Shown: positions 35,299-41,200, counted from the first letter of the stretch. The stretch: 64,000 nt of DNA from Longimicrobiales bacterium (GCA_965203485.1 OZ241892.1:3200001-3264000), one strand, 5' to 3'. Program-made: the numbers.

Positions 35299-38200
35299 TT
35301 CGTACGTGAGTTGGCGGACATTGGCCAAGCGCGTTTCGCGCGTGTCGGCCAAGCTTTGCGCGACGGAGCTTGCCGGAGGCCACGACAACCCCAGGAAAAG
35401 GACTGTTGCCGCGAACGAAGCGGCGCGCAGCTCGATCGAGCGCGGACCGCGGCGCCGGTGCGCGACCGGATCCAGCCGGTGGCCTGCGTCCCGAAGGGGC
35501 ATCGGCCCGCCGTGCGCGCTTGGCCGAGACCGGGGGGCGAAGGGGATCACTGCGAAGCGTAAGGTCATCTGTGGCGTTCGTCTGTTGGTTGGATGCGTCT
35601 TGTGGACATGGTACGGCGATGCGGCTTCCCGGAGTCGGCGTCATTTGTCTTGGGCCGGCGGCTCCGAACGGGACACGCGAACGCCGCGCTTGGCGAGTTC
35701 CTCGATGAACAGGGCGGGAGGAAGGGCCTCGTCGGGGGTGCGAACGCCGGGACCGGGCACGTCGCCGCGGGCTTGCAGGAGGGCCGTGACGGCCAAGGCG
35801 AAGCCAGTGGTTCGCGCCATCGCGGTGAGGCCGGTCGCGTGGTCGTAGTGGTCCACCAGGTCGAAACGGACGCGCGCGCGGCGGCCGTCGCGGCGGCCCG
35901 CGGCCTCCACGCGCGCCACGACCACGTCGTCGCCGTGCGGGTTGGTCAAGCGCGGCGTCGCGCGCTCGACGAAGAACTTCCTGGGATTGACCTTGCCGCC
36001 GCGAAAGTCCACGTCGCCGTCTTCCAGGAGGCCCAAGTCGCGGATCGCGCGCATGATCGCGGCGTGGCCAGGGTAGCGCAGCGTCTTGTATTCCAGCCTG
36101 TCGATGCGGTTCTCGTACCGGTTCGGCATCGTCGATACTCCGCCCGCCGTGTGGAACGCCTCGAGGCGGCCGACGGACTCGGGGAACTCGATCTCCTCCA
36201 CCCCCGAGAGCGCCTCCACCTGGGTGCGCTTGCCGCCCGCCAGAACCACGGCGGGCGTCACGTAGTAGTCGAGCACGCCTTCCAGGGAATAGACGATCTG
36301 GTAGCGGAGCGGCGGCTTGGGGTCGCGCGGCAGGCCGCCCACCCACATGCATACCGAATCGGTCGCGTCCAACTCGTCGATGCCCGCTTGCGCGAGCACG
36401 TTCGCGATGCCGGGCGCGAGGCCCGTGTCCGGCACGAGCGACACGTTGCGCCGCCGCGCCCGGGCGTCGAGCGAACGCTGCTTCAGCACGATCTCGGTGT
36501 TGCCGCCCAAGTCCGTGAAGTGGACGTCGGCGTCCACCGCCAGGCGCGCCATGTCGTAGTTGAAGCGGTAGGGCAGCGCGCACAGCACGCCCGTCGCGCC
36601 GCTCATCGCGTCCCGGACCTCGTCTTCGGAGCGAGCGTCCAAGACGCGCGTCCGGAGCCGCTTCCCCAGGAACGGTCTCAGAACGGGATGCGCCTGCGCT
36701 GGGCGAGCGTCGGCCATGGCCACCTCCTCCACGCCCTCGTCGCGCAGCAAGTCGAAGGCCGCCGCCGACCCTTGGGTCCCGCCTCCCAGAACGAGAAACC
36801 TCATGGCCGCGGAGTCGGCGAGAACAAGTCGCGGTCTTCCCGGAAACGCCCAGCGCGGCTCGGCGGTCGCGGGGTTGCCGGCGGGCCCGCGTCCTCTTCT
36901 TTCGCCGCCCCGCCCTCGCGCGCCAAGTCCGCGCCGGGCGCCAGGCCGGCTTTGGCTCCCGTCGGCAGTCGCTTGTCCGCGGGCTCCGGGGGCTGTCCGT
37001 CCGCGCCGCCGCGGCCGCCCGCTCGGTCTCCGGTCTCCGCCAAGGCGCGCGACACCTCCACGATCCGGTCGCCCGGCTCCAGGGTCGTCAGCCGTCCGGC
37101 CAGGGCCAGCCTCCGCGTCACGGGCACCGAGCCCGCGACGAGCCAGTGCGTGCGCCCCGCGGCAGACACCACCATGACGCCGTCCTCGTCCAGGACCTCG
37201 AGCGCGCCGGCCAGGCGTCCTCCGTCCCGCTCCGGCAGGAGAAGCGCGCCCAGGCCGCCCCTCTTCTGCATCGGGAATTCGTCCATCGCGGTCCGCTTCC
37301 CCCTGCCGTCCTCGGTCACCGAAAGGATCGTCGTCTCGCGGACCAGCACGGCCATCCCCACCACGTAGTCTCCCGGCCGCAACCCGACCGCCTTGACGCC
37401 CTGCGCCCCGCGGCCCGCCACCGGCACCTGGGTCGCCGGGAAGCGTATCGCGCGGCCTCCATGGGTCGCGAACAGGAGCTCGGCTCCGCCGGACGCCAGT
37501 GCCACGTCGAGAATCTCGTCGCCGTCGCGCACTCCCGCGGCGAGGAGTCCCCCCGCCTTGGGACGCGCGTACTGGTCCAGCCGGGTGCGCTTCACCATGC
37601 CTTGCCGCGTCGCGAACACGACGTAGCAGTCCTCGGACAGGTCGTCGGCCGAGACCACGGCGGCGATGGGGTCGCGCGCGGGCGCGTCCAGGAGTCCGTA
37701 CGCCGAGCGTCCCCGCGAAGCCAGCGAAGCCTCGGGCACGTCTTCCAGCTTCAGGCGCCACACCTTGCCGCTCTTCGTGAAGAGAAGCAGCCATCCCTGC
37801 GTCCGGGCCACCACGGCGCGCTCGAGAAAGTCGCCCTCGTAGCGGCCCATGCGAGCCAGCGCCTTGCCCGCCGTCGTTCGGCGCTGGTGAATGTGCACCG
37901 GGATGCGCTTGAGGTAGCGGCGGCGCGAGACCGTCGCCACGACCGCTTCGTCCGCGGCGCCCGACTCCACGGGCGCGGCCGCGTCCTCGTCGCCCGCAAG
38001 GATATGGGTGCGGCGGGCGTCGCCGAACTGCTCCACGACGGCGTCCATCTCGGCGAGCATCGTGGCGAGCTGCAGCGACTCGTCCCCCAAGAGCTTCCGA
38101 AGTTCCCGTATCTCGGCCTCGAGGGCGGCCCTGCGCGCCCGCAGCTCGTCTCCTTCGAGGGCGGTGAGCTTGGCCAAGCGAAGATCGAGGATCGCGCCCG

Positions 38201-41200
38201 CCTGCACGTCGCTGAGGCCGAAGGCGTCCTGCAGCTTCTCGGCGGCTTCCGCGCGGTTCGCCGAGCCGCGGATCAGCGCGATGACTTGGTCGATGTCGTC
38301 CAGGGCGACGAGCAAGCCCTCGGTGACGTGGAGCGCCGCGAGGGCCTTCTCCAAGTCGAAGCGAGTCCGGGCGCGGATGACCTCGAGCCGGTGGTCGCGG
38401 AACCGCTCCAGCAATTCCTTCAGCGTGAACTCGCGGGGCTGCTTGCCGCCGTCCAGCGCGAGCAGGATCGCCCCGAACGTGGACTGAAGCGCCGTCTTCT
38501 TGAGGAGGAGCTGGACGATCCGCCCGGCGTCGGCGCCCCGCTTGAGCTCGATCACCAAGCGCACGCCCTCCCGGTCCGATTCGTCGCGCAACCCGGAGAC
38601 GTCCGGCAGGGCGCCCTTGCGCTTGAGTCCGGCGATCTGGTCCACGATGCGGGCCTTGGACGTGGCGTAGGGCAGTTCGGTCACGACGATCTGCCGCCGT
38701 CCCCCGCGCACAGCCTCCGTCACGATGCGGGCCCTCATCGTGATGCGGCCCCTCCCCGTCTCGTACATCTCGCGCAGGCCCTCCGCGCGCGCAACGAAGG
38801 CGCCCGTGGGGAAGTCCGGGCCCGGAAGGTCCTTCATCAAGTCGGCGACGTCGCAGTCCGGGCGCTCCACCAGGGTGCGCAGGGCGGCGGCCACCTCGCC
38901 CAGGTTGTGCGGCGGAACGTTGGTGCTCATGCCGACGGCTATGCCCGCGCTGCCGTTGACCAGCAGGTTGGGGATGCGGGCGGGCAGCACTGTGGGTTCC
39001 TGGAGACGGTCGTCGAAGTTGTCTTCCCACTGCACCGTCTCCTTCTCGATCTCGGCCAGCATCTCGCTCGCCACGGCGGACAGGCGCGCTTCCGTGTAGC
39101 GATAGGCCGCCGCCGCGTCGCCGTCGAGCGAGCCGAAGTTGCCCTGGCCGTCCACTAGCGGATAGCGCAGCGAGAAGTCCTGCACCATGCGGACCAAGGC
39201 GTCGTACACCGCCGCGTCGCCGTGCGGGTGGTACTTGCCCAGGACTTCGCCGACGACGGTGGCGCACTTCTTGTGGTCGCGGTCGGGCTGGAGCCCGAGC
39301 CCGTGCATTGCGAACAGGATGCGCCGGTGCACCGGCTTCAGGCCGTCGCGCACGTCCGGCAACGCGCGTTGAACGATCACGCTCATCGAGTAGTCGAGGA
39401 ACGAGTCGCGCATCTCGGTTTCGATGAGGCGCGAGACGATGCGTTCGCGTTGCTGGGCTAGCGTCAATTCGCTCTCCGTGGCCGGACGGGACGTGGCTGG
39501 CCGCTCCCTCCTGTCCCGCGTAGACGGCGCCGCCGGCCGCTACCCGGCCCGGTTTGGGGCTTTGCGACTTGGGCGCCTAGGCGCCGCGAGCGCGATTGCC
39601 GGGAGCATCGAGGGACGGAGCTGAGCGGCGGCCTAATATACGCCCCGGCGAAGGGCCCGCAGGGACCATCGCGCGCTCGAGGACCTTCACCGAGTCCCCC
39701 AGTTGGACGCGCCCGGGGCCGTCGTGGACCGCGTTGAGTCCGAAGTACGCCTTGTCCTCGATCTTGCGGTACCGGGCCAGCGTCCGCAACGGTTCCGACG
39801 CCGAATCGGCTTCGCCGGTGGCTTGGTCGATGGTGGTCACCTTGCAGCGCGCGCAGAGCTTGACGCCCGAGAACGTCACGCCGCCTGCGGAGAAGCGGCG
39901 CCACTGGTCCTCGTCGTGCGGCGGCGCCCCGCGGACGACGACGTTAGGCCGAAAGCGGTCGGCGGGCACGCGCCGGCCGGAGCGGCGGGCCAGCTCTTGG
40001 ACGGCGGCCTCGGTCACCACCAGAACCGGATATCCGTCGGCGAACGACACGCGGCGGCCTTCGGCGAAGGCGGGGTCGGCGAAGCGCATGTCGTCGTCGG
40101 CCATGAACGCGAGGCGGCGTTCGGTGCCCAGCCGTTCGGAGAGCCAGGCGTCGGCCTCGGCGCCGCACGACCGGGCCGCAACTTCGCTGTCCCAGACGCG
40201 CACCCGAAGGGGCGGCCCGCCCGCCGCGAAAGGGACTTGGAGGGGCGGGGCCCCGGGCGCGCTCAGGACCAGGCCGGCGCCGGGCTCCACGCGAGGGACC
40301 AGGCGGGCCAGCCCGGGCGTGTCGCGCTGCGAGCAGAACTGGCCCGCGGGGGTGGCGACGAGCCAGCGCCGGTCGTGGCACGGACCGAAGCGGTCGAAGT
40401 CGAGCGCATCGGCGTCCAGGCCGGCCGCGCCCTTCACCGGATAGATGCGCAGGCGGGCGACTCGAAGACGATCGGTCGCAGCGCCGGCCGGGCCGGTCAC
40501 GGGACGAAGCGGCCGCGTGGGCGGGCGTCGTCCGAACCGCCAACCGGCGCCTTGACACGAGGGCCGCTCACTTCCAGCGTACCAGACTCGGGAGACGGCG
40601 GCGCGCGCAACGGAGCGTTGCCGTCGCGCCAGGCCCGGCTCGGCAAATACCCCAGCGGCGGCGACCATCCGACATGTACAAAGCCGTGTTCCAAGTCACC
40701 GATGCGTACGACCACCCGCACGGAGGCCGAATTCTGCGATTGAAGCTGCGGTCGGGCGACGCGCCGAGCGTCAAGGCGCTCAAGAACAAGGTGGTGGTGG
40801 CGAGTTCTCCGGCGGGCGAGGAGGCGCGCCTGCGCGTGTCGAACTTCGCGGTCTTCGGGGGAAAGCCGTCCGACGCGCGCTTGGCGCGGACGGGACGCGC
40901 CGACGTGCTCGTGGAAGGCGACGGGGCGTCCCGGGTGGACGCGGGCTGGGAGGTCTCGGCGGGCAGGGGCTGAGCAGTCCGGCGGACGGTGGAGACGGCC
41001 CCGCGGCGCGCGATCAGCGCTGGGCGGGCCCGCGGGCCGCGGTGTTGCCGCGCAGGCCGGGGGGTTCGCGCTCGAACGTGCGGCGAAACCACTCGGCGTA
41101 CTTTTCCGGCGCGTCGGGGTTGTCGGCCAGCCAAGCCCGGCGGGCCTCGACGAACGCGCCCGGCCGCGCCGTGAGGAGGAACGCGTCCAGGAAGCCTCGG

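Follow-up and report, generated by a model that had tools for sequence, protein, structure and literature searches.

Which B subunit would a second gyrase-type A subunit use in a genome that encodes a single GyrB? The question is raised by gyrA2, a gene of a Longimicrobiales bacterium that lies in the window (the whole stretch of 64,000 nucleotides that was analysed). A preliminary description took its product, g02470, to be a GyrA duplicate that has no ParE of its own and borrows the one GyrB, an arrangement held to be fixed across the order and new among type IIA topoisomerases. As a whole, this interpretation is partly supported by the analysis presented here.

The gyrA2 gene and its product

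The TTG start of gyrA2 is preceded by GGAG at 7-10 nt and agrees in position with 20 orthologues. The gene and its general features are as follows (window positions):

36801..39467, minus strand: gyrA2 coding sequence for a second GyrA-family subunit (888 aa, TTG start, TGA stop), open frame intact
38049..39368, minus strand: PF00521 breakage-reunion domain, residues 34-473 (Pfam E 6.2e-150)
39201..39230, minus strand: quinolone-resistance-determining stretch, 10 residues, Ala at the E. coli Ser83 position
39096..39098, minus strand: catalytic Tyr124 in AAYRYTE, invariant in the alignment and in 25/25 second copies
36804..37025, minus strand: Pro/Gly/Ala-rich C-terminal tail of 74 aa, residues 815-888, with no counterpart in aligned orthologues

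GyrA2 is a type IIA topoisomerase subunit A (GyrA/ParC superfamily), with PF00521, the catalytic Tyr and the PF03989 pinwheel all present; Pfam reports PF00521 and four PF03989 blades at 129.3 bits. Both NCBIfam gyrA models are passed (NF004043, 931.4 bits with a cut-off of 902; TIGR01063, 903.7 with a cut-off of 877), and the protein falls under the cut-off of all five ParC equivalog models, NF010586, TIGR01061, TIGR01062, NF007209 and NF007208 (for example, 603 against 813 for TIGR01061 and 507.9 against 628.9 for TIGR01062).

None of the 25 second copies departs from the catalytic Arg-Tyr or from the metal- and DNA-gate motifs, which argues against a protein that is no longer a topoisomerase and acts as a DNA-binding or GyrB-titrating regulator. 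Such a role could be read from the faster evolution of GyrA2, which is 53-67% identical within the order compared with 64-77% for GyrA1, the canonical copy, and from its somewhat higher dN/dS. However, dN/dS stays at 0.11-0.31 over the whole length in 6/6 pairs; these ratios indicate a functional gene under purifying selection, and a purely regulatory GyrA2 is improbable.

The Ala within 39201..39230, at the position that we take to correspond to Ser83 in E. coli numbering, and the resistant second gyrB genes of coumarin producers may both be counted in favor of a role as a spare A subunit insensitive to a gyrase poison, whether a self-made or environmental quinolone-like compound or a protein toxin. 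However, this position is S, T, A, M or G across the second copies and is variable in canonical copies as well; since the second copies differ here, there is no clade-wide signature. The gene is flanked by MOSC and PD40 genes, and a Pfam scan of 13 candidate ORFs in 31068-44677 gave no biosynthetic, pentapeptide-repeat or toxin match. A resistant spare would need neither the vertical inheritance of the gene through five or more families nor the loss of the GyrA box, and a resistance role seems hardly probable.

A single gyrB alongside two A genes

The source genome is one contig of 3,557,016 bp and is 95.19% complete. A six-frame PF00521 search finds two places in it. The canonical GyrA1 (840 aa, contig 3063827-3066346, outside the window) has the GyrA box QRRGGRG and is 48% identical to GyrA2; it has five Pfam blade stretches, not the six previously given. 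The sole gyrB (contig 425513-427435) is the only match of PF00204, PF00986 and TIGR01055 in six-frame searches at E up to 10, and these searches of the source genome found no cognate ParE for GyrA2 and only one GyrB/ParE-family gene. The remaining Toprim matches are TopA, RecR and DnaG, so that every match is accounted for; TP6A_N has no match in the genome, and there is only one type IA topoisomerase. The earlier count of two 48%-identical GyrA-family genes, one GyrB/ParE gene and no second B subunit is thus borne out.

A ParE-like partner that is split or strongly divergent might still have been missed, given the completeness of 95.19% and one relative, G038, with two different gyrB fragments. 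Against this stand the searches at E up to 10, the fully explained Toprim matches, the single gyrB in each of seven single-contig relatives with two A genes, and the performance of the search method itself, which recovered parE adjoining parC in Paenibacillus and Pedobacter and two B-subunit genes in 18/18 of those among 50 diverse genomes that have two A genes and equal counts. A missed partner is therefore very improbable.

Distribution and origin of the second A gene

Among 41 Longimicrobiales genomes, at least two GyrA-family places are found in 40, and a gyrB is present in all 41. Fixation across the order accordingly holds for two A genes in 40/41 and for a single gyrB in 40/41 (in pieces in G021 and G027, partial in G035), and fails in G018, which has one A gene; G038, with two overlapping gyrB fragments that are only 81% identical, is ambiguous. 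Two A genes with one gyrB also occur outside the order, in 4/4 genomes of two sister families (f6 and f7). The other Gemmatimonadota have one GyrA and one type IIA enzyme. Across the 50 diverse genomes, A and B gene counts are equal in 45 and two A genes with one B gene occur in only one; since parity is the norm elsewhere, the pattern is not due to chance.

In mixture-model trees of 75, 40 and 32 rows, GyrA2 and the f6/f7 copies (SH-aLRT 99) fall inside Gemmatimonadota GyrA, a placement that comes from quick searches with SH-aLRT as its support and in which the GyrA2 rows are deviant in amino-acid composition. In a FastTree run, the GyrA2 clade came out at the base of GyrA, which that tree leaves unresolved, and outside Gemmatimonadota. 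Independently of any tree, a Tyr precedes the catalytic Arg-Tyr in 68/68 Gemmatimonadota sequences, including 25/25 second copies, and in 3/73 others. Taken together, the sequence evidence indicates that GyrA2 is a gyrA duplicate from within Gemmatimonadota, as previously proposed, and most likely only gyrA was duplicated, in the ancestor of Longimicrobiales and the two sister families. Identification as a ParC was rejected, as the ParC models, the 75-row tree (no grouping with ParC of E. coli, Paenibacillus or Pedobacter) and the missing cognate ParE all speak against it; acquisition by transfer was likewise rejected.

A comparable set is found in the Chloroflexota class that holds the Anaerolineae MAG G119, in which 23/41 genomes have a canonical GyrA, a box-less paralogue and one gyrB. 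The box-less paralogues keep the catalytic motif, have Met rather than Tyr before the catalytic Arg-Tyr, and are nested within the GyrA clade of their own class (32-row tree), which indicates a duplication independent of the one in Gemmatimonadota. A literature search for these paralogues found no description of them. Two A genes and one B gene with a box-less second GyrA are a real and recurrent set that has never been characterised.

The C-terminal domain and the GyrA box

The part of GyrA2 that has changed most is its C-terminal domain, which is 33% identical to that of GyrA1, compared with 57% for the N-terminal part:

37038..37955, minus strand: C-terminal domain, residues 505-810, a six-bladed beta-pinwheel (AF2 model, pLDDT 91.8)
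37860..37886, minus strand: degenerate GyrA box QRRTTAGKA, residues 528-536, departing from the canonical Q[RK]RGG[RK]G, which joins blades 1 and 6
37248..37268, minus strand: retained GyrA-box-like motif QKRGGLG at blade 5 (RGG in 16/21 GyrA2 copies)

The degeneracy of the box, noted before, extends to the whole clade: 21/21 GyrA2 copies lack the GG pair and a deletion removes the box from 4/4 sister-family copies; 41/41 canonical sequences retain it. The mean net charge of the domain is +3.3 in GyrA2 versus +9.0 in canonical copies. The role of the box is taken here from review passages on E. coli and Aquifex work, according to which mutation of the box abolishes supercoiling and makes gyrase topo-IV-like, and an Aquifex 'GyrA' without the box behaves as a topo IV (PMC8216471, PMC2647321).

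It is possible, though unlikely, that GyrA2 and GyrB form a second, specialised supercoiling gyrase with another set point, processivity or expression condition. This would fit with the gyrA equivalog cut-offs passed by GyrA2, with the blade-5 box kept in most copies, and with a complete six-bladed pinwheel that in fold comes closest to C-terminal domains of GyrA (TMq 0.84-0.91). Since this full domain comes with an Arg-rich remnant at the box position and is still basic in family f1 (pI about 10), some residual wrapping or supercoiling may persist. However, the loss of the box throughout the clade, the published effect of box mutation and the far greater divergence of this domain than of the core all count against a second gyrase.

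Predicted contact with GyrB

The region through which GyrB would be held lies at the other end of the protein:

39375..39449, minus strand: N-terminal arm (residues 7-31), which touches the Toprim/tail domain of GyrB in the predicted complex

When the C-terminal part of GyrB is modelled with the N-terminal part of GyrA2, the predicted complex scores 0.81, compared with 0.00 for the best control. At least 87% of contacts are shared between runs, and the partner has a pLDDT of at least 88; the mark for this score is reached by 116/157 solved complexes and 2/215 mismatched pairs. Because gyrase complexes have already been solved, this result speaks for likeness to them and not for binding by GyrA2. 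At 30 contact positions, which are taken from the predicted model and of which 6 are near-universal, GyrA2 and the GyrA1 of the same genome are 57-93% identical (23/30 in the source genome), and in 23/24 genomes they are more alike there than over the remainder of the N-terminal part. In contrast, ParC and GyrA are 27-43% identical at these positions in 15 genomes that encode a ParE of their own, less than the rest in 14 and equal to it in one, in pairs that are older than those of GyrA2 and GyrA1. These modelled contacts suggest that the GyrB-contacting arm of GyrA2 stays GyrA-like, unlike that of ParC. In the Chloroflexota class, contact positions exceed the rest in only 2/4 genomes.

The N-terminal parts of GyrA1 and GyrA2 are 55-67% identical within a genome and both proteins would need the same GyrB; gyrase has also been described, in a review on its asymmetry (PMC5983639), to work with asymmetric subunits. 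Mixed dimers could thus be envisaged: in place of two separate enzymes, the cell would have asymmetric gyrases in which only one of the two C-terminal domains wraps DNA. No result of this analysis favors heterodimers, however, and both paralogues were already present when the families split and have trees that mirror each other. Such long coexistence fits with two separate, stable functions, and mixed dimers are rather unlikely.

A proposed enzyme with a shared GyrB

Since GyrA2 is a gyrA duplicate that has no ParE, has lost the box and keeps its catalytic residues and its GyrB arm, borrowing of the single GyrB seems the simplest reading, and it is fairly probable that GyrA2 and the shared GyrB make up a topo-IV-like enzyme. 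In this proposal, gyrA alone would have been duplicated within Gemmatimonadota, and a second type IIA topoisomerase would cleave DNA through the product of gyrA2, its A subunit, in which the cleavage core and the GyrB-clamping N-terminal arm were kept as the DNA-wrapping C-terminal domain diverged and lost its GyrA box. Because cleavage needs a Toprim partner and GyrA2 lacks a dedicated B subunit, it would assemble with the only GyrB. The resulting tetramer, GyrB2-GyrA2(2), would carry out ATP-dependent strand passage without chiral wrapping of DNA and would decatenate and relax DNA in the manner of topo IV; we infer this activity, without supercoiling, from the loss of the GyrA box. GyrB2-GyrA1(2) would remain the supercoiling gyrase, and the GyrA1:GyrA2 ratio would set the balance of the two activities through competition for GyrB.

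A more general proposal is about evenly balanced: that one GyrB routinely serves two A subunits, those of a supercoiling gyrase and a non-wrapping decatenase whose balance is set by GyrA1/GyrA2 competition, and that duplication of the A gene alone with box loss, which happened separately in Gemmatimonadota and Chloroflexota at the least, and probably in cyanobacteria as well, is the first step in the birth of topo-IV-like enzymes. If this is true, such enzymes begin with the A subunit, and a dedicated B subunit comes later or never.

Comparison with known systems

A whole lineage thus keeps two gyrase A genes and one B gene, with a similar set in a second phylum and one noted in cyanobacteria. 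Synechocystis sp. PCC 6803, as described in passages of two papers, has Slr0417 (GyrA), Sll1941 (a second GyrA or 'ParC') and one annotated gyrB, Sll2005; these papers take Sll1941 for the A subunit of a topo IV and suggest that GyrB acts with it 'as a decatenating topoisomerase' (PMC9825172, PMC6560206). The suggestion of a shared GyrB in that organism is therefore already in print (Behle et al.). As in Longimicrobiales, there are two GyrA-family genes, one annotated gyrB and a GyrA-derived second copy, the cyanobacterial side being known here from these papers. The phylum is a different one, however, the passages do not state that parE is absent, the pairing is likewise a suggestion, and the two A proteins are 61% identical (PMC6560206) compared with 48% for GyrA1 and GyrA2. 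The in-phylum origin of GyrA2 argues against common descent with Sll1941. The Chloroflexota class has the same gene set by independent duplication, with its own residue before the catalytic Arg-Tyr. Together with Synechocystis, these duplicates weaken the earlier claim that the arrangement is new.

The Aquifex aeolicus 'GyrA' topo IV (Tretter, Lerman and Berger 2010) relaxes and decatenates DNA without supercoiling and has a GyrB-type partner, according to review passages (PMC8216471, PMC2647321). Like GyrA2, it has a core of the gyrase lineage and a C-terminal domain without a GyrA box, although that domain (PDB 3no0) is a weaker fold match to GyrA2 (TMq 0.65) than GyrA domains are. In Aquifex, 'GyrA' belongs to the only type IIA enzyme, whereas GyrA2 coexists with a canonical GyrA1 and would have to share GyrB. 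Mycobacterium tuberculosis represents another solution, as a single gyrase with two GyrA boxes does both jobs and there is no second A subunit, as described in a passage of PMC8216471. The other Gemmatimonadota resemble it in having one type IIA enzyme and a GyrA with a second, blade-5 box (Q.RGGKG).

Canonical topo IV of E. coli and Gram-positive bacteria also has an A subunit without a GyrA box and the activity proposed for GyrA2, and the C-terminal domain of Gram-positive ParC (PDB 1wp5) likewise has six blades (TMq 0.83 to GyrA2). However, it has its own ParE, usually encoded adjoining parC, which GyrA2 does not; ParC has moved away from GyrA in its B-contact arm, and its phylogenetic origin is another. 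Coumarin-producing Streptomyces have two gyrB and one gyrA, and Arabidopsis has one GyrA and two GyrB. In these organisms one subunit likewise serves two partners, but it is the B subunit that was duplicated, and both enzymes are gyrases.

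Gene content of the genome

In the textbook view a bacterium has a single type IIA topoisomerase or a pair of complete enzymes. The present genome, a single contig of 3,557,016 bp that is rated 95.19% complete, has two places matching PF00521, namely gyrA2 and the gene of GyrA1, the canonical GyrA. In six-frame searches (E up to 10) with PF00204, PF00986 and the parE model TIGR01055, gyrB was the sole match to each profile and no second GyrB/ParE gene was found, which confirms the preliminary description in its count of two GyrA-family genes and a single GyrB/ParE gene.

Window 36801-39467, - strand: gyrA2, 888 codons, an open frame from a TTG start to a TGA stop
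Contig 3063827-3066346: GyrA1, 840 aa, box QRRGGRG, PF00521 match
Contig 425513-427435: gyrB

The remaining Toprim matches are TopA, RecR and DnaG; the genome encodes a single type IA enzyme, and the search for a topo VI A domain had no match in it. About 744 kb separate gyrB from gyrA2. None of 13 candidate ORFs around gyrA2 that were scanned with Pfam is a likely partner gene; the nearest with hits encode a MOSC protein on the upstream side and a PD40-repeat protein on the downstream side.

GyrA2 as a divergent GyrA

The start of gyrA2 agrees with the N-termini of 20 orthologues. GyrA2 scores above the cut-offs of both gyrA equivalog models, NF004043 (931.4 bits, cut-off 902; the best NCBIfam model) and TIGR01063 (903.7 bits, cut-off 877); the generic subfamily model NF004044 is third-best (752.9, cut-off 654), and all five NCBIfam ParC equivalog models fall under their cut-offs. 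Pfam finds PF00521 and four C-terminal blades in GyrA2 (129.3 bits), and in GyrA1 five blade stretches (228.8 bits) where six blades had been reported. The AlphaFold model of GyrA2 residues 500-815 is a complete six-bladed pinwheel (pLDDT 91.8, pTM 0.89), with its best fold matches among GyrA domains (TMq 0.84-0.91), followed by the six-bladed Gram-positive ParC 1wp5 (0.83), Aquifex 3no0 (0.65) and E. coli ParC (0.61).

The second copies are conserved in some respects and altered in others. Their catalytic motif is intact in 25 of 25, and in all six close pairs compared the dN/dS of GyrA2 is 0.11-0.31, as against 0.08-0.25 for GyrA1 of the same genomes. GyrA2 and GyrA1 are 57% identical in the N-terminal part and 33% in the C-terminal domain, the mean net charge of which falls from +9.0 in canonical to +3.3 in second copies. 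All 21 GyrA2 copies have lost the GG of the GyrA box, all four copies from the sister families of Longimicrobiales (f6 and f7) have a deletion of the box, and 41 of 41 canonical proteins retain it intact. A box-like motif in blade 5, Q.RGG.G, is kept in 16 of the 21 GyrA2 copies (window 37248-37268 in the present one). Canonical Gemmatimonadota GyrA likewise has a second GyrA-box-like motif in this blade, e.g., QGRGGKG; M. tuberculosis is described in a review as having a second GyrA-box motif together with a single type IIA enzyme (PMC8216471). The residue equivalent to Ser83 is Ala in the window copy and variable across the clade. At its C-terminus GyrA2 has a 74-aa tail rich in Pro, Gly and Ala (window 36804-37025, - strand) that has no aligned counterpart in the aligned orthologues. 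The region is overlapped on the opposite strand by an ORF of 591 codons without a Pfam hit (35593-37368, + strand), probably an artefact of high G+C content.

Phylogenetic origin of GyrA2

GyrA2 shares 48% identity with GyrA1. Its identity to full-length GyrA of other phyla is 40-48%, partial hits reaching 55% in shorter alignments, and that of GyrA1 to these proteins is 45-61%. A FastTree analysis joined GyrA2 and the second copies of f6 and f7 at 99 and left this clade in an unresolved basal position, which counts against an origin within the phylum. Since it conflicts with both the mixture-model trees and a Tyr signature, we take it for an effect of long-branch attraction. In the main set of 75 rows, analysed under LG+C20+F+G4 (PMSF), this clade (SH-aLRT 99) lies within a Gemmatimonadota clade (37 rows, 95) as the sister group of class-level canonical GyrA (33 rows, 99), and sets of 40 and 32 rows agree on its placement. 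Independently of any tree, Tyr precedes the catalytic Arg-Tyr in all 68 Gemmatimonadota sequences (21 GyrA2, four sister-family and 43 canonical copies), whereas the same position in other phyla is Tyr in 3 of 73 and Met in 67 of 73.

Window 39090-39107, - strand, and loci L014-L078: AAYRYTE, the phylum-wide signature in which Tyr replaces a near-universal Met

Horizontal transfer and descent from an ancient ParC were both considered for GyrA2 and rejected on the signature and the placement within Gemmatimonadota. Canonical GyrA from the families with two copies is united in a single clade (13 rows, 98), and family groups repeat in both paralogue clades. The simplest history is one duplication in the common ancestor of these families followed by vertical descent, although the maximum-likelihood trees set the paralogue one node deeper than this history would.

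Distribution in the order and the phylum

At least two GyrA-family places are present in 40 of 41 Longimicrobiales genomes, including the present one, and one in the remaining genome (G018). All 41 have gyrB, and 40 are compatible with a single gene, counting three in which it is in pieces (G021, G027) or partial (G035). These tallies take in the unpublished genomes G002 and G030, the sequences of which were not used. The sole candidate exception is G038, a bin of 560 contigs with 3% contamination, in which two gyrB fragments (C195:12645-14396 and C512:5-1264; loci L204, L205) overlap with 81% identity over 354 residues; the bin may mix two strains or contain a real second gyrB.

The phylum survey covered 81 genomes at least 90% complete, the unpublished G092 among them. 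Families f4, f5, f8, f9, f10 and f11 (70 genomes) have mostly one GyrA gene's worth: two genomes gave zero matches at E 1e-40 (G068, G113), two have two pieces each that are compatible with one gene (G047, G064), and overlapping pieces in G110 make a second gene possible. Two full GyrA copies are found in f6 (one of one genome) and f7 (three of three), with a single gyrB in all four. Taken together with the order, this distribution indicates that a single type IIA enzyme is the norm of the phylum and that one sub-lineage gained a second A subunit.

In f7 a distance of 7-8 kb separates the single gyrB from the box-less copy, with canonical gyrA far from this gyrB:

G093:C1 3238483-3249156: gyrB and box-less copy
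G112:C1 2147878-2158415: gyrB and box-less copy
G107:C1 207829-217691: gyrB and box-less copy

The corresponding distance is 18-43 kb in G008:C244, G084:C53 and G023:C1.

Outside this lineage equal numbers of A and B genes are the rule, as seen in 50 genomes of many phyla: 27 have one of each and 18 two of each, and the other five are three small or fragmentary genomes without a B match, one with genes in pieces and one gammaproteobacterial MAG with two A genes and one B. In the Paenibacillus and Pedobacter controls parE adjoins parC.

Predicted fit of GyrA2 to GyrB

The complex of GyrB residues 395-641 with GyrA2 residues 1-500, each given as a 20-row alignment, was predicted with a score of 0.81 (best control 0.00) and passed a mark that is attained by 116 of 157 solved complexes, against 2 of 215 mismatched pairs; since gyrase complexes have already been solved, this pass shows likeness, not binding. 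The runs share at least 87% of contacts, with partner pLDDT of at least 88. Thirty contact positions are predicted, mostly in residues 7-31 of the N-terminal arm. At these predicted positions, six of which are near-universal, identity between a second copy and its own genome's canonical GyrA is 57-93%, higher than over the remainder of the N-terminal part in 23 of 24 Gemmatimonadota genomes, whereas ParC, which is older than GyrA2, is 27-43% identical to GyrA and falls under the remainder in 14 of 15 genomes with their own ParE and equals it in one. (Fifteen ParC N-termini were fetched, of which L209, L218 and L220 were dropped for want of a readable frame; E. coli, Paenibacillus and Pedobacter bring the number back to 15.) This pattern is as would be expected if GyrB were shared.

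According to two reviews, mutation of the GyrA box turns gyrase into a topo-IV-like enzyme, and an Aquifex "GyrA" without the box works as topo IV (PMC8216471, PMC2647321). The best-supported reading, and one we somewhat favor, is that proposed in the preliminary description, in which GyrA2 would borrow GyrB as a topo-IV-like decatenase; each functional step is inferred. The lineage carries one and a half type IIA topoisomerases, unlike the textbook one or two. If GyrB does serve both A subunits, topo-IV-like enzymes can emerge repeatedly and recently from gyrA alone, the ratio of A subunits could tune supercoiling against decatenation, and GyrB-directed drugs would strike two enzymes together in such organisms. 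The case is tractable, as three proteins suffice and the paralogues differ mainly in one domain.

A recurrent arrangement

The combination of two A genes and one B gene had been claimed as new; instead, it recurs. Besides one gyrB and a canonical GyrA, the Anaerolineae MAG G119 encodes a GyrA-like protein without the box. Its class was surveyed in 41 genomes of 90% completeness or more (G119, G170-G209; loci L177-L184), of which 23 have two A genes and one B, three have two of each and 15 have one of each. In all four class genomes examined the box is present in one GyrA and missing from the other, which keeps its catalytic motif, and in G181 and G200 canonical GyrA, box-less paralogue and gyrB share a single contig of 3.3-3.8 Mb. 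The box-less clade of this class (100) is nested in the class's own GyrA (99), apart from the Gemmatimonadota clade, and by these sequence relationships its duplication is independent. Contact-position identity here is 53-80% and exceeds the rest in two of four genomes.

The cyanobacterial parallel comes from two papers (PMC6560206, PMC9825172): Gartner et al. (2019) read Synechocystis Sll1941 as ParC, with Slr0417 as GyrA and Sll2005 as GyrB (PMC6560206), and a decatenating role of GyrB together with Sll1941 has also been suggested in print (Behle et al.). Forterre and Gadelle (PMC2647321), in their section on bacterial topoisomerases, and PMC8216471 leave it an open question if topo-IV-like enzymes had several independent origins. 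Searches of the literature, outside subscription journals, on two gyrA genes, missing parE, Longimicrobia and Anaerolineae returned just the Synechocystis papers and general reviews, and an earlier description is possible. The GyrA2 arrangement is an independent instance of a small, recurrent kind and not new as such, with independent replicates in the class of G119 and, as these papers present it, in cyanobacteria.

In the class genomes with two of each gene (G171:C42, G189:C15, G191:C50) the second B is the direct neighbour of an A gene, the two having lower Pfam scores, and a similar low-scoring adjoining B-A pair occurs in three genomes with one of each (G176:C4, G193:C50, G208:C158). These pairs may represent a distinct gyrase/topo IV lineage or a later B duplication. 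At G209:C289:634-3420 an open frame of 1140 codons contains a PF00521 match in two parts with a gap of about 1.5 kb, which may reflect an intein in gyrA.
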